IMG/VR virus record: IMGVR_UViG_3300035704_000007
Span: 2,946-66,945 of that record
Source: a virus
Strand: one strand, 5' to 3'
Length of the DNA: 64,000 nucleotides
Position 1 is the first letter of the stretch. Every line of letters begins with the position of its first letter. A model generated the notes under the pieces. That model had not been told where the DNA came from. It worked only from the letters and a program-made list of their open reading frames with translations, and did no database searches. Position numbers and translations under genes: made by a program. Below, one piece after another: positions 8,536 to 62,014 of the stretch.

Positions 8536-9187
8536 GGCTGTCTCTCCGGCGGCCGATAGCCCAGCTCCTTGGCTCGCTCCTCGGTCAGCCCGAGCCAGCC
8601 GAGCCGCCGCTCCCAGTCCGCGGCCGCCCAGGCCCGCCGCCGCTCCCGGCCCTCCTCGGTCACCGGCGCTCCCGGTGGGCCGAAAGCGCGCAAGAAACCC
8701 CGCAAGAGCGCCAACTCACCCCGGTCGGCCGCCGATAACCCGCGCCTCATCGGTTGTTCTCCTCGGCCGCCCGGTCGCGCTCCCGCCAATAGCCATCGAT
8801 CTCCTGCAATTGCCGCACTCGCCGCAGCGCCTCATCAACGTCCGGCTCGAGCCCCGCCCGCCGCCGCCGCTCCTCGCTCGCGCGCTTCAACGCCGCGATC
8901 TCCGCCTGCTCTGTGGTCATCGTCGTTTCTCCTTCCGTTCGCTCGCCACCAGCACCGCCGAGACCGCCGCGAACCAGAGGAAGAAGGCCAGGGCCAGCAG
9001 CCCGAGGAAGAGGGTCATCGCTCCTCCTCCCGCACGAGCGCCAGCAGCTCCGACCGGGTGATCCGCAGGGCTTTGCCCTCCGGCGTCTCCCCCAGGTAGC
9101 TTGGATGCCGTGAGAGGAGGACCGCAGCCCGCAAGATGACGCGCTCCTCGCGTTCGCGGCGGGCCGCTTCTTTCAGGGATTGCTCTC

Positions 9188-9769
9188 TCATGGCTTCACC
9201 AGATCGACGCTGAACCGGCCGAAGGGTCCGCTCTTGCTCGGTCGAAAGTCGCCGACGCCGATAATGGCTCCCGCCAGGTCGAAGACCTGTTGGATCATCT
9301 CGGGGTTCAAGAGCATTGGTTCATATTGAAACTCAACCGTCGTCGCCCACTGCGGCAGCTTCGGACGGGATCGGCTGATCCCCTGGCGCTGCACGACGGC
9401 GCGGCGGATATCGATCTCATACTCCCGCAGCGGGTGCCCGGTTTCCGGGTGATATAACGGCGCTGACTCCTCAATGGCGAACAGGGCTGCCGAGAGAATT
9501 AGCCGGGCAGCCTTCTTCTCGATCTTCTGCCCCGCCGCTGCCGCCAGGATCGCCGAGCGGAAATGCGTTGTCGGCAGATACAGTTGACCCGAGGGCAGCC
9601 GGTAGCAGCCTGCTTCCGCCTCCTCTTCCGGCGATGGAATGACCTTCGGACCGATGCCGGTCTCTTTCCGCCGCGCCATTCCGGCGGGGTTGTGCATCAA
9701 GAGCCCCGCGCCGTGAACGCCCGTCACCTCGAACCGCACTAACCGCAGATCCCCATAATGACTCGCCAT
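9188..9769 (-). CDS. Stand-alone Cas7/RAMP-like RNA-binding protein
   Basis: N-terminal strand VRFEVTG..LLMHN; YLPTTHFRSAI helix; RSRP..W; C-terminal Gly-rich loop AGAIIGVGDFRPSKSGPFGRFSV; RBS AAGGAG. Fold is inferred from motifs. Confidence 0.7.
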   Translation of the reverse strand: MASHYGDLRLVRFEVTGVHGAGLLMHNPAGMARRKETGIGPKVIPSPEEEAEAGCYRLPSGQLYLPTTHFRSAILAAAAGQKIEKKAARLILSAALFAIEESAPLYHPETGHPLREYEIDIRRAVVQRQGISRSRPKLPQWATTVEFQYEPMLLNPEMIQQVFDLAGAIIGVGDFRPSKSGPFGRFSVDLVKP

Positions 9770-9795
9770 TGTTCACTCCTTGACTGGCTGAGAAG

Positions 9796-10371
9796 AAAAA
9801 GACCCTCACCTGACCTCGCCATGCCTCACCGCACCTCGCCATGCCGTAACCGACCTCGCCTGACCTCGCCTCACCAGACCCGGCCCCACCAGATGAAAGC
9901 GTTAGAAAGACCCTCACCCTGCCTCACCTTGCCGCGCCAGGCCCAGCCTCACCGGGCCTCGCCATGCCCGACCGAACCACACCTGACTAGAGCAAACCGG
10001 CGGCGGCCTCACCTCACCCTGCCTGGCCACACCCCGCCGGGCCTAACCGCACCCAACCAAAGCAAGAAGCATGGAAAAAGAACCTCACCCTGCCTTGCCT
10101 CACCCGACCTGACCCGGCCCGACCAGGCAACGCCCCACCTGACCAGACCTCGCCCCGCCAGGCCTCACCCCACCGCGAGAAGTCGCTTGAAAGACCCTTA
10201 CCTCACCGGACCAGACCGTACCCGGACTCACCATGCCACGCCTTGCCTTGCCCCGCCGTACCACAACAAAGCGGGAAAAAAGACCCTCACCCTACCGCGC
10301 CCCACCTGACCGCACCCGGCCATACCTGACCGCGCCTTGCCAGACCTCAGCTGGCCATCCCAAACCATGCC
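9796..10371 (-). ncRNA. Array of six GGY-NN pentamer tracts (putative guide RNAs)
   Basis: About 95 units with strict 5-nt period; five tracts end in GGT(G/A)AGG(G/T)TCTTT; lies between the ParB-like and RAMP-like genes. Confidence 0.75.
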
Positions 10372-11289: not shown

Positions 11290-11625
11290 TCAGGCGAAGA
11301 TGGCCAGTAACTCGGCATTGGTGAGCGGCGCTTCCGGCTCACGAAGGCCGCTCCTTGAACACAGGGCGCAGGGAATTGGCTCCATATTCGGGTAGCAGCA
11401 GCGCGGCTTCAGGAACCCCTCTCCGTGGCACAGGGCGCACTCTTTTTGTTCGTCCAAATACCGAGCGAGGGCTTCTCCATGACGGCAAAGGCTTCCTGGC
11501 TTATTAGCCAGGCGATAGGCGTAGTGGAGACAGTCACACTGCCCGGTCTCGGCGGAAACCAGATGCTCGTCGCCCGTCAGCCGCACCCGGTACATTCCCG
11601 GCTGACCTTCTACCGGCTCGATCAT
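11290..11625 (-). CDS. SWIM-like zinc-finger protein
   Basis: CDC..CRH plus CALCHGEG..CALC. Confidence 0.65.
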   Translation of the reverse strand: MIEPVEGQPGMYRVRLTGDEHLVSAETGQCDCLHYAYRLANKPGSLCRHGEALARYLDEQKECALCHGEGFLKPRCCYPNMEPIPCALCSRSGLREPEAPLTNAELLAIFA

Positions 11626-11843
11626 ATCCGTGCTTTCAGGTAGTCCTCGGAGCGAAAATGGATCGTCCGCCGCACCTCGCCGCCCATTCGCAGCGTCCAG
11701 TTGAAAAGCGTGCCGCGCGTGACGCCCAGGTGCGCGGCCACCTCTTCCCAGTCCTTGCCCGACTCGATCAACTCGCGAATGAGGATCTCCAGGCACTTGC
11801 CGTGGGCGACTTCGATCTCCCGCATTTGCTTGGTCTTCTTCAT
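11622..11843 (-). CDS. Cro-like HTH protein
   Basis: WEEVAAHLGVTRGTLFNW; divergent from the repressor. Confidence 0.7.
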   Translation of the reverse strand: MKKTKQMREIEVAHGKCLEILIRELIESGKDWEEVAAHLGVTRGTLFNWTLRMGGEVRRTIHFRSEDYLKARI

Positions 11844-11976
11844 CTCTCCCCAGCCCTTCCCGGCTCTTACACGCGTTATAGGTTATTCTACACGATATGG
11901 GATGCAATAGTCAATACAAACGTCTATACTGGGTGTGCGATTACCCCAGTCGTGGATGGGAGGAAGAAGGGCTGTA

Positions 11977-16097: not shown

Positions 16098-16916
16098 TTA
16101 GTTCTCTGCCTTCCGTCTGCGGTCCTGTATCTGCCGGTCCCGGTCAACATCCCAGGCGTCCAGATCCCGCTTGTAGACGAGCCGTGCGGCCTTCTCATCG
16201 CCGGCCCTCAGGAAAGGCAGGTGCCCGGCCTCGATGCGCTGATAGACTGCCTGGACGCTGACGCCCTTATATTTAGCGGCATTGCGGATCGAGAATAGCT
16301 CTTCGTTCTTCAACTCGCGTGGCTTCTTCGCTGCTGGCATTCGCTTCCGTTCACTCACTGGCTTGGGTTCACTGATCCTGACCTGTTTAGGCTCTCTGAT
16401 CTTGACTTGATTGCCCGTCGCTAACATGTTGCGCCTCCTTGTCTCCAACCCCTTAGCGGTCGCGGCAGGAGACCTGGGCCGCCGCATTTTGGCTTTTGAC
16501 TCCTCCGTATGCTTCTTTCCTTTTCGGAATGCGGACAGCTTTGCTTTAGCTTGTTCCGTCAGGGTTTGTCCCTGCCGCGCGGCGGCGATCCTCGCCCGCG
16601 TCTCATCAGCGTGCATGAAACCCAGCGACCCCTCTCCTCCTGCTGTCAGATTGGTCAGCGGGGCTCCTCTATCGCGATAATGTTTGATCCAAAACTGCTC
16701 TCTCTGCAGAACCTCATCTGTCTCTTCGAGAATGGCCAGCACCGGTTCTAAGCCCAATCCAAACAGTACGCGTAGCCAGCATGATAGGTGCAGCCTGCTG
16801 CCCCGTGCGGCGGCGTGATAATGGTCTGAAAGCCGCTCATGGCCTCCTCTGTTGGTTTGTCCGATGTACCGAGTATCGCCGGTCCTGGGGTCGAGTAGAG
16901 CATAGACGATCCCCAT
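16098..16916 (-). CDS. GIY-YIG endonuclease with NUMOD3 motifs and C-terminal excisionase-like HTH
   Basis: GIVYAL..RYIGQT..R..EQFWI..N; KHTEESKAKM; LFSIRNAAKYKGVSVQAVYQRI. Confidence 0.85.
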   Translation of the reverse strand: MGIVYALLDPRTGDTRYIGQTNRGGHERLSDHYHAAARGSRLHLSCWLRVLFGLGLEPVLAILEETDEVLQREQFWIKHYRDRGAPLTNLTAGGEGSLGFMHADETRARIAAARQGQTLTEQAKAKLSAFRKGKKHTEESKAKMRRPRSPAATAKGLETRRRNMLATGNQVKIREPKQVRISEPKPVSERKRMPAAKKPRELKNEELFSIRNAAKYKGVSVQAVYQRIEAGHLPFLRAGDEKAARLVYKRDLDAWDVDRDRQIQDRRRKAEN

Positions 16917-39226: not shown

Positions 39227-39676
39227 TTAACTAATCGCCGTGCAGAAACCGCGATAGCGACCACCGAGGTGGTTGTATCTGATGCCGCTGGCGTCGACTT
39301 CTACGTAACGGATGGGCTCCTCACGGAACATTCCCATCACCTGCAAGTTGGCGCTCGGGATAGAGCCGCTCGCGCCCATCAAAAGTTGGTCGATCCGGTC
39401 GGCGATAGGGGCGGCGGAAGCAAAAGAGTTCGTCTTGGTAATCGCTCGGCAACTAAACAAGATTCTGGTGAAGGCTCGCCGGTCCCCGCCAATCACGTTC
39501 ACGTCCGGTGAAGAGATAAATGCCCAGACAACTACGGGCTCGATAGCACCCTCGGGTGCCTGCTCGGGATAGCACTTTGTGCCCCCTAGCAAGCTAAGCA
39601 TCGTCGCATCGGTAGACAACCGCTGGAAAATGAATTGGTCGAAAGCTTGTAGCTCATTCCCGGTCATGTCAGGCAC
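39227..39676 (-). CDS. Tail terminator-like protein
   Basis: L..DAT...LLG..CYPEQAPEGA..P.VV; position. Confidence 0.7.
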   Translation of the reverse strand: MPDMTGNELQAFDQFIFQRLSTDATMLSLLGGTKCYPEQAPEGAIEPVVVWAFISSPDVNVIGGDRRAFTRILFSCRAITKTNSFASAAPIADRIDQLLMGASGSIPSANLQVMGMFREEPIRYVEVDASGIRYNHLGGRYRGFCTAIS

Positions 39677-39734
39677 AATCCTGAAGGAAAATCGCGCCTG
39701 CTTGGCGAACTTTCAGGTAAGGAGTAAGCGTGCA

Positions 39735-40637
39735 ATGGGAAGGCCAAAGGGCTCTAAGAATGGGGTGCTTACGCTCGTTTGGATTGACTGCGAACGGTGC
39801 GGCACGCCGTTCAGTCGCCGTCCCGGTCACGCCCCAGGAGCAAAGTATTGCTCTCGCAAGTGCTATCGGCCCCCACGCCCGGACTATGTTTGCGAGACGT
39901 GCGGCAAAAGCTATCCGTACCATGCTTCCGTGCGGGGCCGCTTTTGCTCTTCGCTGTGCAAGCGGAACCGGGTGCAGAAATGCTGCCCCGAGTGTGGAAA
40001 GACTTTCGAGCCAACCGTGAGCAAAGCGGCAAAGTTCAATTACTGTTCGATTGGCTGCCGTCGCATCGCCGCAGAACGCGCTCGGGTGAAGATCACTTGC
40101 GAGACATGCGGAAAGCATTTCGAGCGGGTTCCGTCGCAGCCTGTCACAGGGAGGTATTGCTCCAACGAATGCCTGTATGCCAGAGGTCGGGCGACAATCG
40201 TCTGTGCCTACTGCGGCAAAGAGCGGACGGTCAAGAAATATCGCGCCGAGGAGGGGCAGCGATGCTGTTCCAACCGCTGTGCAACGCTCTTGCGGATGCG
40301 AGATGGGTTTGAGCCCGGCGACTTCGGGAACAAGCGCCGGTCGGGTTATCGCACGGACATCGAGCGGTTGACGGAGGCCGTGCTGCTTGAACTCAACATC
40401 ATCTATCTCTTCGAGCACAAGGTTAGTCGCTATTCGGTCGACTTTGCTTTGCCGCTTCACGGCATCGCGCTGGAATGTGACGGCTGGCAGCATTTGACCC
40501 TGGAGGGCCGCGAGCATGACAAAACCCGTGACGCATTTCTTGAGTCGCAAGGCTGGAGGGTCGTCCATGTGCTTGACCGCGAGATCCGCACGGATGCCGG
40601 AACAGCGATCCGGCGGGCTCTGGGAATCAAGAAGTAG
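39735..40637 (+). CDS. Multi-zinc-finger DUF559/Vsr-like endonuclease
   Basis: Five CxxCG..YCSxxC repeats; VDF..IALECDG..H..D..RDAFL..GWRV. Confidence 0.8.
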   Translation: MGRPKGSKNGVLTLVWIDCERCGTPFSRRPGHAPGAKYCSRKCYRPPRPDYVCETCGKSYPYHASVRGRFCSSLCKRNRVQKCCPECGKTFEPTVSKAAKFNYCSIGCRRIAAERARVKITCETCGKHFERVPSQPVTGRYCSNECLYARGRATIVCAYCGKERTVKKYRAEEGQRCCSNRCATLLRMRDGFEPGDFGNKRRSGYRTDIERLTEAVLLELNIIYLFEHKVSRYSVDFALPLHGIALECDGWQHLTLEGREHDKTRDAFLESQGWRVVHVLDREIRTDAGTAIRRALGIKK

Positions 40638-46556: not shown

Positions 46557-46630
46557 TGTTAGCCTCCCTCAAAAGGAACAACCGGTCGCTTGGTCGAATC
46601 TAATTACGTGTGTGCGAGAGGAGAAACAAG

Positions 46631-47620
46631 ATGGCATCTAGGGCGCGACGATCGCTCGAAGAGCGGTTTTGGGAGAAGGTTGAGATTGCCGGCCCGGATG
46701 ACTGTTGGGAATGGATGGCGTGCCGCGATTTCCGTGGCTATGGCCGGCTCGGCTTTGGCGGCCACAATGGTGGCGTCGGGTGGGCTTATCGGATCGCCTA
46801 CCAACTGACCAAAGGACCGATCCCCAAGGGCTATGATGTCCGTCACTTTGTTTGCCACCATCCCCCGTGCTGCAATCCGAAGCACCTGATCCTGGGAACC
46901 AGAGTCGATAACGTCAGTGACATGGTGGCGGCTGGTCGCTGGAAGAACGCGCCGGTCGCGCCGCCTGATCCGAACCGGGAGCGCTGGGAGCGTCCGCCCG
47001 ACCCCGAGTACGTCTGTCACACTTGCGGGTTGATCTTCTCCCGGTCCTTCGGCCGCACTCAAATCGGCAAGCACACCTATTGCTGCCGGGAGCACTACTT
47101 CGCCGCTAAGGAGTTTCGGCTGGCAGAGCGTTTCTGGGAGAAGGTCGACAAACGCGGGCCTGATGAATGCTGGCCGTGGTTGGCGGCGCTTGGGCCGAAT
47201 GGCTATGGTGTGATTGGGAAGCCCGGCGGCGGCGGTCTCCAGGCTCACCGGGTCGCCTGGGAGTTGGCTCACGGATCTATTCCCGCCGGGCTGATCGTGC
47301 GTCATTACGTCTGCGATAACCGCCCCTGCTGCAACGTCGCGCATATGAAGTTGGGCACCCGGCGACAGAACAGCGAGGACATGGTTCGAAAGGGACGCCA
47401 AGCTACCGGCGACCAAAGCCCGCGCAACCTTCACCCGGAAAGCTATGCCGTGGGCGAGGCGCATGCCAACTCCAAGCTGGTGCCGGAACAGGTGCGAGCG
47501 ATTCGGCAGGAGTATGCCCGAGGAGGCATCTCCTTCAGATCGCTCGCCCTGCGGTATGGCGTCTGCGCTGGCGTGATTGATCGGATCGTGCATCGCGAAA
47601 CCTGGAAGCATATCGAGTAG
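46631..47620 (+). CDS. Double-HNH homing endonuclease
   Basis: Two ERFWEKV..CW.W..GYG..RH..C..CCN..H..GT..N..DM domains. Confidence 0.9.
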   Translation: MASRARRSLEERFWEKVEIAGPDDCWEWMACRDFRGYGRLGFGGHNGGVGWAYRIAYQLTKGPIPKGYDVRHFVCHHPPCCNPKHLILGTRVDNVSDMVAAGRWKNAPVAPPDPNRERWERPPDPEYVCHTCGLIFSRSFGRTQIGKHTYCCREHYFAAKEFRLAERFWEKVDKRGPDECWPWLAALGPNGYGVIGKPGGGGLQAHRVAWELAHGSIPAGLIVRHYVCDNRPCCNVAHMKLGTRRQNSEDMVRKGRQATGDQSPRNLHPESYAVGEAHANSKLVPEQVRAIRQEYARGGISFRSLALRYGVCAGVIDRIVHRETWKHIE

Positions 47621-51807: not shown

Positions 51808-52041
51808 TCAAGGAGCGGGCTCTTCCCTGCGCCGTCCCGTTCCCGCGCAATCCGGGCAGAGGATCGGCTTGACGATGCCCAGGCGCACGGCGACAGCGGA
51901 GGCTTCCGGCAGCGCTTCCCAGACACGCCACGGCTCACCGGCCTCGCTATTGGCGATCCGGCCGCAGCCGTCGCAGCGCGGGCAGGGTTCGCGAATGACG
52001 GCATCGCCGAAACCCGTTTCGGCGTTGATGCTGTGTTTCAT
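51808..52041 (-). CDS. Small DnaJ-type Zn-finger protein
   Basis: CPRCDGCG..CPDCAGTG. Confidence 0.55.
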   Translation of the reverse strand: MKHSINAETGFGDAVIREPCPRCDGCGRIANSEAGEPWRVWEALPEASAVAVRLGIVKPILCPDCAGTGRRREEPAP

Positions 52042-52259
52042 CCCTCGAGTACCTCCTCGACTTTGGCCTCCGGCAGTGACAGCAGCCGGCTGCAGACCGG
52101 GCAGCGCTTCAGGAGCGCGGCCGGCGGAGCAGGCGGGCCGCTCTGCACGCCCACCAGCGAGGCGCGGCCGTGGATGTCGCTGACGATCCAGCCGTTGCCG
52201 GTCCAGGACCAACGGCAGCCACACCCGCAAGCGCCCGAGGGCAAGAGATGTTCAGGCAT
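52038..52259 (-). CDS. Small Cys-rich protein
   Basis: CGCGC..CPVC; GAGGAG RBS. Confidence 0.5.
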   Translation of the reverse strand: MPEHLLPSGACGCGCRWSWTGNGWIVSDIHGRASLVGVQSGPPAPPAALLKRCPVCSRLLSLPEAKVEEVLEG

Positions 52260-52377
52260 TGCTATTTCTCCTCACCCATCAGCGGCGATCCATCGCGCGG
52301 AACCCACGCCAATTCATTGGCAGTGGAGGAGCGCGATACCTGCTTGTCTGAAGGATTGGTGCTATAATAATGGTGGT

Positions 52378-53514
52378 ATGACGAAAACACTGGTGGTCTC
52401 CTTGCGGCCTACTGAGCAGCAGTTACCGGATTTATTCCTGGCAATGGAAGCGTTCAACGCTGCCTGTAATTGCGTCTCAGCGATTGCCTGGGAGACGCAG
52501 GAGTTCAATAACTATCGGCTCCGTCGGCTCGCCTATCGAACGATCCGCGAGCAGTTTGGACTGCCGGCACAACTGGCGCAGCAGGCCATCGCTAAAGTCG
52601 CCAATGCCTACAAGGTCGCGAAGCATCGGCGCGCCGAGTTCGAGCCGCATGGCGCTGTCACCTATGACTGCCGCGTGTTCCGGCTGTTGGGTGTTTCTGC
52701 CGTCTCCATGACGCTGCTCTCCGGTCGCGCTAAAATCGCTCTCTCGCTGGGCGGCTATCAGGCAGAGCGTCTGCGAGGGGCGAAGGTGGGTGAGGTCGAT
52801 CTGTGCTATCTTCCCGAGAAGCATCGTTTCCGGCTGCACCTCTCGCTCAAAACCGAGACGCCGCCGGTCGCCGAGACGGAAGAGTTTCTCGGCATCGACA
52901 TGGGCATCAAGAACATCGCCGCCGACAGCGACGGCACCCTCTACGCGGGCGGCAAGCTGCGCCGGCTGCGAAAGGTGGCCCGGCGGGTGCGCCGCCGTCT
53001 GCAAAAGCTCGGCACTCGCGGCGCTCGTCGCCTGCTTGTTAAACGACGCCGCAAGGAACAGCGGCGGGTTGCCCATATCAATCACTGCATCTCCAAACAG
53101 ATCGTTCAGGCTGCCAAAGGCACCGGGCGTGGGGTCGCGGTCGAAGACCTGACCCACATCCACGACCGGATAACGGTTCGCCGGGCAGACCGGGCTGAGC
53201 ATTCGGGCTGGGCTTTCCACCAACTGCGCTCCTTTATCGAATACAAGTGTGTCAACGCCGGCATTGCCTGCATCGCCGTCGATCCCCGGAACACCTCCCG
53301 CACCTGCCCCCGCTGTGGGTGCGTCGATAAGCGGAACCGCCCATCCCAGTCCGAATTCCGCTGTGTCAAATGTGGAGAGACCGGTCATGCGGATCTCTTC
53401 GCCGCGCGAGAAATTGCGCTCAGGGGCCGCTCGCTAAGCCGGCCAAACTGCTCGGAGGGGAATGCCGCTGAAACCGGCTCCGCTGTCCTTCAGGGCAAAG
53501 CCACACCCCTTTAG
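52378..53514 (+). CDS. tnpB: TnpB RNA-guided endonuclease (IS200/IS605 family, no tnpA)
   Basis: RuvC triad GIDMG / VEDL / HADLFAA; Zn ribbon CPRCG..CVKCG. Confidence 0.92.
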   Translation: MTKTLVVSLRPTEQQLPDLFLAMEAFNAACNCVSAIAWETQEFNNYRLRRLAYRTIREQFGLPAQLAQQAIAKVANAYKVAKHRRAEFEPHGAVTYDCRVFRLLGVSAVSMTLLSGRAKIALSLGGYQAERLRGAKVGEVDLCYLPEKHRFRLHLSLKTETPPVAETEEFLGIDMGIKNIAADSDGTLYAGGKLRRLRKVARRVRRRLQKLGTRGARRLLVKRRRKEQRRVAHINHCISKQIVQAAKGTGRGVAVEDLTHIHDRITVRRADRAEHSGWAFHQLRSFIEYKCVNAGIACIAVDPRNTSRTCPRCGCVDKRNRPSQSEFRCVKCGETGHADLFAAREIALRGRSLSRPNCSEGNAAETGSAVLQGKATPL

Positions 53515-60439: not shown

Positions 60440-60967
60440 TCACCAACCTCTCGCTTTCGCGTGCGCCACGATGCCGGCCAGAGGGTTGACCGGTTGCTCT
60501 GACAGCACCAGGAAAGCAGACGAACAGGCGTCAACAATGTCGTCATGGATGCCTGCTGACGGGAAGCTGCACATCTCGTCCACCAGCTTTTGGTTCCACG
60601 CTCCCTGAACAAGCAGCACGTTGCCTGCCTCCATCTGCGAAGCCAGCGGCCCGGCGCGCGTGATCTTGTCGCCGGTGGAGCGCCGCCCCGAGACGCGGTA
60701 GCCGGCGAGCATCGCCACGAGTTGCGCCACCTGGGCGACGCCGGCCGAGCCGGGCTCCTGTTCGATGACCACCTCCACGGCGCGGCCGTCCACTTGGGCC
60801 GTCTGCAGGATGATGTCATTCCTTGGACCAGGCGACCAGCGGCCGTGGACCAGATCCTCTATGTAGAACTTCGTGCCATCGCGGGACATCTTGACGCCGG
60901 CACTCGCGTCTGCGTCCGGCGTTGCTGTGGCGGCGAGGTCCCAAAACCTTACTCGTCTGCAGGGCAT
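60440..60967 (-). CDS. Terminase large subunit, C-terminal nuclease part
   Basis: RFWDLAAT..D.SAG; EQEPGSAG; GDKITRA; FP...HDDIVDA. Confidence 0.85.
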   Translation of the reverse strand: MPCRRVRFWDLAATATPDADASAGVKMSRDGTKFYIEDLVHGRWSPGPRNDIILQTAQVDGRAVEVVIEQEPGSAGVAQVAQLVAMLAGYRVSGRRSTGDKITRAGPLASQMEAGNVLLVQGAWNQKLVDEMCSFPSAGIHDDIVDACSSAFLVLSEQPVNPLAGIVAHAKARGW

Positions 60968-60989
60968 TCCTGATACCGTCGCCTACCGG

Positions 60990-61178
60990 TCACCGATTTG
61001 CCTCGTCAGCAATGCAGCGCCTCTGATGCTCAAGCATGCACGCTTCGCCCGCTTTACCGCGATGACAGATCATCGCCCTACAGATAGGGCAGCGGCGTCG
61101 CTGACGCATAATCGCTGGCCGGCGACAAACCACACAGAGAGGGATAAGGTTGCTCGTGTTGCCTCGCCGCTCTTTCAT
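60990..61178 (-). CDS. Small Cys-rich ORF between the terminase halves
   Basis: CVVC..CPIC..CH..C..H; ATGA-coupled to the ATPase part. Confidence 0.55.
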   Translation of the reverse strand: MKERRGNTSNLIPLCVVCRRPAIMRQRRRCPICRAMICHRGKAGEACMLEHQRRCIADEANR

Positions 61179-62014
61179 GCCGGCCCTGCTTCCACGATCC
61201 GAAACCACTCCCTGCGGAACAGTTTCCCCTCCGGCCGCACGTCCCAATCCCCCTCCAGCAGTTGGCGGCGCGTCACCGGGTCGAGCTGATTGAGCGCCTG
61301 CGTATACTCCTCGGCGTCCAGATACGGGTTGTCCTGCAAGCGCGCCGGCACGAAGACCCGCTCCGGGTCGTCGTGCGGCTCGATGAACCGCTGCTTCACC
61401 CACTCGGCGCCGGGGTTGGTCGCCGCGCGCATCCGAATGGGGATCTTCGAGCCACCCGAGCGCCGGATGCGGCTGAACAGGTAGCGATACGAGCTTTCAC
61501 TGAAGTGGGATAACTCATCGAAGCAAACGAGCGAAAACTCGGCGCCTTGATAGCGATACTTGTCATTCTCCGTCTGCAGGTAGCCGAAGCTGATCGTCGC
61601 TCCCGACGGGAAGCGCCAGGTCTTCTCGGCGTCGTGCCACTTCGCCGCGGTCGGCCGCAGCCATTCGCCGGCCCGGTCCATCAACGCCCCCGGCAGCGCC
61701 AGATCCTGATAGGTGCGCCGGAAGAGGATCGCGGTGTAACCGGGCACCTCGACATACTGCAAAGCGGCCATCAGAAGGCAGTCCGACTTGCCACCGCCAG
61801 CCGCACCGCCAAACAAGGCTTCCCTTGCTTGCACGTCAAGGAACTGCGCCTGCCGGGTCGTCGGGGTGTGCGGGCAGAACGGGATCACTCCCGCCGCCTT
61901 CGCCTTCGCTTTCGGGTTCTGCTTCGTCTTCTCCGCTAACAGCCGCTCGATCAAGAGCAGCCGGAAGTCGTCGGAGTAGACGGTCGCGCTCGGCGCGGAG
62001 TTGGTCCTCATCAT
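61175..62014 (-). CDS. Terminase large subunit, N-terminal ATPase part (start uncertain)
   Basis: FGGAAGGGKS; CFDE; ATNPG; DNPYL; LLEGDW. Confidence 0.9.
   Translation of the reverse strand: MMRTNSAPSATVYSDDFRLLLIERLLAEKTKQNPKAKAKAAGVIPFCPHTPTTRQAQFLDVQAREALFGGAAGGGKSDCLLMAALQYVEVPGYTAILFRRTYQDLALPGALMDRAGEWLRPTAAKWHDAEKTWRFPSGATISFGYLQTENDKYRYQGAEFSLVCFDELSHFSESSYRYLFSRIRRSGGSKIPIRMRAATNPGAEWVKQRFIEPHDDPERVFVPARLQDNPYLDAEEYTQALNQLDPVTRRQLLEGDWDVRPEGKLFRREWFRIVEAGPA

Follow-up and report, generated by a model that had tools for sequence, protein, structure and literature searches.

A probable VIPR locus with a linked ParB-like gene in a temperate tailed phage from soil

The GGY-NN array and the vipr gene

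The IMG/VR record IMGVR_UViG_3300035704_000007 is a 66,945-nt contig from a soil phage, of which we analysed positions 2,946 to 66,945 (the window; 64,000 nt, numbered here from its first letter). On the minus strand of the window, a gene for a ParB-like protein, an array of GGY-NN pentamers (Y, pyrimidine; N, any base) and a gene for a Cas7-like protein of 193 amino acids (aa) follow one another (Table 1). The last two are given here the names vrRNA array and vipr, after the VIPR (Viral Interference Programmable Repeat) systems described in preprints in 2026 (10.64898/2026.04.26.720920; 10.64898/2026.04.26.720927; 10.64898/2026.10.15.759431; 760802).

Read on the minus strand from 10371 to 9801, the array consists of six tracts of in-phase GGY-NN units, with 18, 14, 19, 11, 15 and 18 units (95 in total). 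Position 1 is G in 94/95 units, position 2 is G in 92/95 and position 3 is C or T in 90/95, and all 16 dinucleotides are found at positions 4 and 5, with GA the most frequent (21/95). Four units are degenerate (GCTGA, GTCCG, TGCCT and GTTAC), the phase being retained in each case. The tail GGT(G/A)A-GG(G/T)TC-TTT closes five of the six tracts, tract 4 being the exception, and the linkers between tracts are 18-21 nt long and, by reading, about three quarters pyrimidine. An initial annotation of this DNA had described the strict 5-nt period, the six tracts with these unit counts, the tail shared by five of them and the short pyrimidine-rich linkers; our parse recovered all of these, and only the ends of the tracts were shifted, by 2 nt. 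When 12 successive units were scored for in-phase GGY, 12/12 was reached at the array alone, and the maximum for the plus strand was 4. At a threshold of 6/8 units, the array was the sole match on the whole contig (9796-10371) and 0/50 shuffles gave any.

Table 1. Features of the locus (window coordinates)
Feature	Position	Strand	Description or basis
58-aa open reading frame	9015..9191	-	ATG overlaps vipr stop codon (ATGA); from the list of open reading frames
vipr gene, RAMP/Cas7-like, 193 aa	9188..9769	-	Homology to SUSP1 Vipr; Cas7/Csm3-like model
vrRNA array	9796..10371	-	Six GGY-NN tracts with tails and pyrimidine-rich linkers
vrRNA 1	10282..10371	-	18 units; unit 5 (GCTGA) degenerate; end GGTGA GGGTC, then T-run
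vrRNA 2	10193..10262	-	14 units; unit 8 (GTCCG) degenerate; end GGTAA GGGTC
vrRNA 3	10080..10174	-	19 units; unit 10 (TGCCT) degenerate; end GGTGA GGTTC
vrRNA 4	10004..10058	-	11 units; without the common tail; end GGTGA GGTGA GGCCG
vrRNA 5	9909..9983	-	15 units; 0 degenerate; end GGTGA GGGTC
vrRNA 6	9801..9890	-	18 units; unit 9 (GTTAC) degenerate; end GGTGA GGGTC
ParB/Noc/KorB-like accessory gene, 230 aa	10376..11068	-	ParB N-terminal domain, helix-turn-helix, helical C-terminal part
Promoter-like site TTGACT-18-TAGAAT	11885..11914	-	Consensus scan, 10/12 hexamer matches; consensus match alone

The vipr ATG lies 26 nt past the last T-run of the array, with AAGGAG 6 nt upstream of it, and the open reading frame (ORF), with its glycine-rich C terminus, is as first described. 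The protein had no match in Pfam and matched a PHROGs family of unknown function (phrog_4652, E-value 1e-19). In a single-sequence phmmer search against all PDB sequences, the only match was 36pp_D, annotated as 'SUSP1 Vipr protein' (E 0.007). Homologues of the 193-aa protein numbered 112 at E ≤ 1e-3, its own protein included, all of them unnamed, and a profile built from 48 of the 112 (the window protein and 47 homologues) matched 36pp_D end to end at E 2.5e-21 (positions 3-184 of 187 against residues 1-190 of 202), the next PDB match, at E 0.53, being noise. An AlphaFold2 model was obtained with a pLDDT (predicted local distance difference test) of 93.9 and a pTM (predicted template-modelling score) of 0.88. 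Foldseek gave 53 matches to this model at E ≤ 0.001, among them type III Csm3/Cas7, type VII Cas7 and Cas7-11, with Csm3/Cas7 at the top, and the matches in BFVD were RAMP-like proteins of phages (best E 5.8e-10, template-modelling (TM) score 0.71). The RRM core, glycine-rich loop (GVGDFRP, residues 171-177) and thumb of the RAMP architecture were all found, as judged from the alignment and the fold matches, not from an inspected superposition.

According to the preprint on the cryo-electron microscopy structure of SUSP1 Vipr, H17 and D177 hold the first G of the pentamer (G1), R138 and W178 hold the second (G2), and R179 holds the pyrimidine (Y3). H17, R138, D177, W178 and R179 align with H26, R135, D174, F175 and R176 of the window protein, and in the 48-sequence alignment R135 and R176 are invariant and D174 is nearly so. 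The counterparts given for Vipr of Pseudomonas fulva are R136, Y176 and R177. Alignment and predicted fold together indicate that the 193-aa protein is a homologue of SUSP1 Vipr with a Cas7/Csm3-like fold, in line with the RAMP/Cas7 fold first proposed for it. At E ≤ 1e-3, a profile of Vipr relatives matched 9,058 cluster representatives, of which 5,723 remained at E ≤ 1e-10. For the 58-aa ORF that overlaps the end of vipr, we found no match in Pfam or PHROGs and no tblastn match in the 97 related loci described below, and it is doubtful that it is part of the system.

Related loci, tract ends and the ParB-like gene

Using a 16-sequence alignment, we collected 97 loci with Vipr relatives (14 from IMG/VR, 3 from genomes and 80 from metagenomes), 89 of which are distinct by their vipr DNA. 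With at least 6/8 in-phase GGY units as the criterion, arrays were present beside vipr on the same strand in 70/89 distinct loci and on the opposite strand in 2/89; counted over the 371 kb of these loci, 172 arrays were on the same strand and 2 on the opposite strand. Where both flanks were 1 kb or longer, 32/37 loci had arrays. Homologues of the window protein thus commonly sit beside arrays of 5-nt period, an association that the initial annotation had pointed to as informative. Among cultured phages, Pseudomonas phage LESphi2, phage DSL-LC04 and Mycobacterium phage Zizzle carry their arrays directly upstream of vipr, as in the window. We also noted that the GGY array of Zizzle (L107, MZ274306.1; locus positions 2041-2237) lies mostly under annotated coding sequence (CDS) 53 (2000-2188) and extends to the 5´ end of CDS 54 (2240-2986), whose annotated start precedes the Vipr match (2501-2983) by a good distance. 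In this phage, guide RNA genes are probably overlapped by the coding sequences as deposited.

A common feature of the tract ends emerged from 66 of the related loci. A purine (R) occupies position 3 of the final in-phase GG unit (GGR) in 153/265 tracts, compared with 37/2,869 non-terminal units, and at least one tract ending in GGR is present in 48/66 loci. The unit that precedes the terminal GGR carries GA, AG or AA in 118/153 cases, giving the signature GGY-RR-GGR, which the window tract end GGTGA-GGGTC matches. Because the published Y3 pocket excludes purines, the GGR unit may be where the Vipr filament ends; more speculatively, it could be a signal that sets filament length. This family-wide end unit is a small addition made by the present analysis.

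Two further kinds of array organization were observed among the related loci. At L013:1440-2702 and L008:5330-5663, one base separates successive tracts so that the phase is shifted by one, and the tracts each close with a GGA or GGG unit; these arrays match those called 'staggered' in the legend of fig. S18 of one preprint (10.64898/2026.04.26.720920). At L002:4597-4920, in a related IMG/VR phage, each vrRNA tract is followed by a tRNA-like T-arm/acceptor element (GGTTCGACTCC...), which suggests that these vrRNAs are released by host tRNA-processing enzymes. A search of the window array against Rfam gave no family at threshold and a single sub-threshold chance match.

The gene directly upstream of the window array encodes a protein that matched phrog_1033 (ParB-like, E 2.3e-10), and a 36-sequence profile of its family matched ParB (7o0n, E 9.5e-9), Noc (7ng0, 4.6e-7) and Spo0J (6sdk, 8e-6) in the PDB. 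Pfam ParB_N was detected at E ≤ 0.01 in 9 of the 36 family members, the window protein not among them. The AlphaFold2 model of the protein had a pLDDT of 95.3, with ParB, Noc and KorB as the top Foldseek matches. Invariant residues R23, G59, R62 and N97 fall within the motifs YPR, DGFHR and LNxxHG, which align with boxes QPR, GxRR and ENLQR of M. xanthus ParB. By this alignment, the conserved residues would bind nucleotide, and the conservation of these ParB nucleotide-binding motifs is a second small addition made here.

A homologue of the ParB-like gene is linked to vipr in 61/89 distinct loci, on the same strand in all 61, and is present in 31/37 loci with long flanks. The Cas7-like gene is therefore not stand-alone, as it had been called in the initial annotation. 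The ParB-like gene is downstream of vipr in 53/61 loci and upstream, in the order accessory gene, array, vipr seen in the window, in 8/61; a quick Vipr tree suggests that the upstream order arose several times. Outside these loci, the protein had no tblastn match at E 1e-5 in 50,697 phage records. According to the preprints, the vap genes of some VIPR types encode nucleases or helicases, and vap1 is required in vivo. The word 'ParB' is absent from the main texts of these preprints, in which vap1-6 are defined in figures and supplements. We regard the ParB-like gene as a candidate vap gene of this VIPR clade, and infer that its product acts as a DNA-binding helper.

The accessory protein shares with the ParB/Spo0J, Noc and KorB (RK2) clamps the ParB N-terminal fold followed by a helix-turn-helix, and with the ParB-family clamps that switch on cytidine triphosphate (CTP) the conserved arginine, glycine and asparagine at the three boxes. 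It differs from them in that the boxes read YPR, DGFHR and LNxxHG instead of QPR, GERR and ENLQR, in that its C-terminal half is unlike that of ParB, in having no partner ParA, and in that no parS-like site was identified for it.

Phage context

The contig is a temperate tailed phage, classed as a virus record in the database. It carries genes for terminase, portal, major head, tape measure and tail proteins, as well as helix-turn-helix (HTH) repressor-like genes, one of which is followed on the plus strand by a gene for a serine recombinase. The minus-strand VIPR operon diverges from these plus-strand repressor-like and recombinase genes and lies upstream of replication-type genes. Judged by its match to the consensus, the promoter-like site may head the minus-strand operon of ParB-like gene, array and vipr. 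Between the Cro-like HTH gene (11622-11843) and the ParB-like gene, a small ORF (11290-11625, minus strand) has a SWIM-like pattern of cysteines and histidines (CxC...CxH, by eye).

In agreement with the initial annotation, no cas1, cas2, cas3, cas5 or cas6 was found in the window, nor was any CRISPR-like tandem repeat. PADLOC, run on 42 of the 84 ORF calls (with 9015-9191 and 11290-11625 added), gave as its sole cas-type match a TnpB/Cas12f-like gene 42 kb away. This 493-aa gene (52033-53514, plus strand; PADLOC Cas12f E 9e-45, PHROG 'transposase' E 1e-41) is located among structural genes and, judged from these matches, would be a second, unrelated gene of the RNA-guided nuclease type in the phage. 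Several other genes of the window are of separate interest. The large terminase is encoded in two ORFs (60440-62014, minus strand), one for the ATPase (61175-62014) and one for the nuclease (60440-60967), which lie ~207 nt apart, and the gap is crossed by a third, cysteine-rich reading frame with CxxC pairs; the interruption could be a split gene, the remnant of an intron or homing element, or an assembly error. Three HNH/homing-endonuclease-like genes were also detected, at 16098-16916, 39579-40637 and 46610-47620 (PHROG E 1.6e-17, 2.3e-16 and 5.7e-54, respectively).

Reading of the locus and its alternatives

We consider it very likely that the locus is an intact VIPR system in the early/regulatory region of a temperate tailed phage, and thus one more locus of a kind already in print. 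The systems characterised by experiment are of type II and come from Escherichia phage SUSP1 and a Pseudomonas fulva prophage (10.64898/2026.04.26.720920; 10.64898/2026.04.26.720927; 10.64898/2026.10.15.759431), and the preprints report that one Vipr protomer binds each pentamer, with GGY sequestered and NN exposed, and that the complex reads double-stranded DNA, passing over one base per unit, forms an R-loop triplex and represses the transcription of rival phages or satellites. The initial annotation had given the correct name, VIPR, and had proposed one subunit per pentamer bound through GGY, discontinuous reading by NN, and binding or repression rather than cutting, directed at rival phages, a scheme that the preprints show for SUSP1. 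Its view of the target held as to the discontinuous NN, and the published target refines it to double-stranded DNA with one base skipped for each NN.

By analogy, the window locus would work as follows. The array would be transcribed along with the operon, since the linkers of 18-21 nt are too short for promoters of their own, and the transcript would be cut in the pyrimidine-rich linkers to give six vrRNAs. Vipr would polymerise on these, one protomer per pentamer, with neighbouring protomers locking G1, G2 and Y3 through H26, R135, D174, F175 and R176 and leaving N4 and N5 exposed. The NN dinucleotides would then pair with double-stranded DNA, one target base being skipped per unit, and the filament would keep the DNA of a rival phage, prophage or satellite from being transcribed. 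The filament would end at the conserved 3´ signature of the tracts, GGY-RR-GGR, which in the window reads GGTGA-GGGTC with Ts after it.

The similarities to the known VIPR systems are the homologous Vipr with the GGY-contact residues kept and a minimal, phage-borne locus with one accessory gene, beside regulators of lysis and lysogeny and without self-targets. Published vrRNA genes are tandem YNNGG/GGYNN repeats of at least 4 units, typically 9-16; the window tracts, on the vipr strand and in five of six cases with a shared 3´ end, have 11-19. As for differences, cultured phages with VIPR (LESphi2, DSL-LC04 and Zizzle) have a small gene downstream of vipr, whereas the window has a 230-aa ParB-like gene upstream, with all six vrRNAs between the accessory gene and vipr. 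The Cas7 subunits of class 1 CRISPR effectors (Csm3 of type III-A, 6ifl and 6ifn; type VII Cas7; Cas7-11) likewise have the RRM core, glycine-rich loop and thumb (Foldseek E 3e-5 to 7e-4) and assemble along guide RNA with a regular spacing, flipping bases at every step, but their TM-scores to the Vipr model are 0.4-0.58 and their identity 9-16%. Class 1 effectors also have a CRISPR array, Cas5/Cas6, large and small subunits and adaptation genes, none of which were found in the window. Their period is 6 nt with 1 base flipped, compared with 5 nt and 3/5 bases sequestered for Vipr, and, unlike in class 1 CRISPR, the specificity of the Vipr guide is written into the repeat itself.

A number of observations weigh against an intact VIPR system. 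Transcription, processing, binding and targets at this locus are taken over from the experiments with SUSP1 and P. fulva, and, as identity to SUSP1 Vipr is low, the 1-nt skip and the choice of DNA rather than RNA as target are carried over by homology. Four units of the array are degenerate and tract 4 has no common tail. No array at threshold was present in 19/89 related loci, mostly short contigs, and 5/37 loci (L001, L009, L011, L025 and L075) had none despite long flanks. The SUSP1 tail is a ~40-60-nt pseudoknot, with no counterpart in the ~13 conserved nt and 18-21-nt linker of the window tails; these tails do not fold more stably than shuffles (z -2.05 to +1.32), the hairpins in single folds are not significant, and a search for a consensus structure across the tails found none.

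The other points of this kind come from target searches, in which no natural target was established by seven seed scans of IMG/VR. A search of the contig for self-targets under skip rules of 0-3 gave nothing above shuffles, a result that speaks for a VIPR system, as the VIPR preprint reports no self-targets for its systems. The guides read as codons had no match above the null in the six frames of the contig. Across all collected loci (442 kb), with mismatches allowed, nothing exceeded the unit-order-shuffle null save vrRNA 1 at 23/30, in all likelihood the seed match in locus L018. For the IMG/VR scans, seven exact 9-unit seeds with 18 specified bases each were used, and matches were obtained for vrRNA 1 (3), vrRNA 3 (1), vrRNA 6 (3, two of them identical) and vrRNA 2 (1), with 0 for vrRNA 5, vrRNA 4 and the 5´ seed of vrRNA 1. 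These 8 matches, about one per seed, are roughly what chance would give. The vrRNA 2 candidate (G001) pairs at 20/22 clean positions with a small tail-fibre-like ORF on a 13-kb provirus fragment (GC content 0.53), and the vrRNA 1 candidates, in tape-measure genes of two high-GC phages, pair at 20/22 and 18/22 over units 6-16; the best candidates for both guides are in frame with the wobble base skipped. Extension past the seeds was at chance level except for vrRNA 2 on G001 (4/6 further positions) and vrRNA 1 on G002 (2/4, units 6-7), and these two are not significant given the number of matches examined. When records G001-G003 were scanned whole, no second guide converged on any of them. In 3/6 independent seed matches the frame is open with the skipped base at the wobble position, which we did not count as evidence because the NNx pattern is itself codon-like.

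Could the locus have lost its function? Besides the degenerate units and the tail-less tract 4, the lack of a target in the contig, the collected loci and IMG/VR would fit a decaying or idle copy in which gene and repeats are present and the guides no longer direct anything. We think this very unlikely: vipr is not truncated, its product aligns with SUSP1 Vipr over the entire length and retains the key residues, its start codon has a ribosome-binding site, 90/95 units are canonical, frequent internal degeneracy of vrRNAs is stated in a preprint, and targets missing from an incomplete database are weak evidence. It is still harder to believe that the tracts are not guide RNAs at all and that a RAMP-like gene has by chance a coding or DNA-level repeat next to it, be it a low-complexity ORF, structural DNA rich in G or iterons bound by protein. 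Long ORFs do cross the array on both strands (for example 9758-10309, plus strand, 183 aa), and ParB-family proteins bind repeated DNA sites, but codons do not give a period of 5, tracts with this GGY phase and free NN, of unrelated NN content, are present on the strand of vipr in 70/89 loci, and a homologous protein has been solved in complex with such RNA.

The alternative that we take most seriously, unlikely as it seems, accepts a VIPR locus and makes the ParB-like partner its active arm, either as a nuclease of ParB/Srx type or as a CTP-dependent clamp that spreads from the site bound by Vipr; with either, the output would go beyond simple repression by covering a promoter. The constant same-strand linkage to vipr in 61/89 loci, the invariant R23, G59, R62 and N97 in the ParB boxes QPR, GxRR and ENLQR, the Foldseek matches to the CTP-dependent clamps ParB, Noc and KorB, and the nuclease and helicase vap genes of some VIPR types, with vap1 needed in vivo, are all consistent with such a role. 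On the other hand, the glutamate of ENLQR is not retained in the accessory protein, the conserved residues are assigned to nucleotide binding by alignment only, and the VIPR relatives in cultured phages use a small unrelated downstream gene, without a ParB-like protein.

The locus that we interpret as an intact VIPR system shows the ParB-linked branch in a clean, compact and high-GC form, fitting its six guides, single effector and single accessory gene into 1.9 kb. KorB is a transcriptional silencer. A speculative extension, to which we give little credence, is that the Vipr filament could be a programmable loading site for a nucleotide-switch clamp of the ParB/KorB kind, that is, RNA-guided loading of ParB without parS. 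If so, the target bound by the vrRNA would recruit the accessory protein, which would then slide or spread along the rival genome, and a footprint of ~40 bp would become long-range silencing. The locus raises two handles on the biology of this branch: nucleotide binding by the ParB boxes, which may couple guided binding to spreading, and the terminal GGR purine, which may end the filament.

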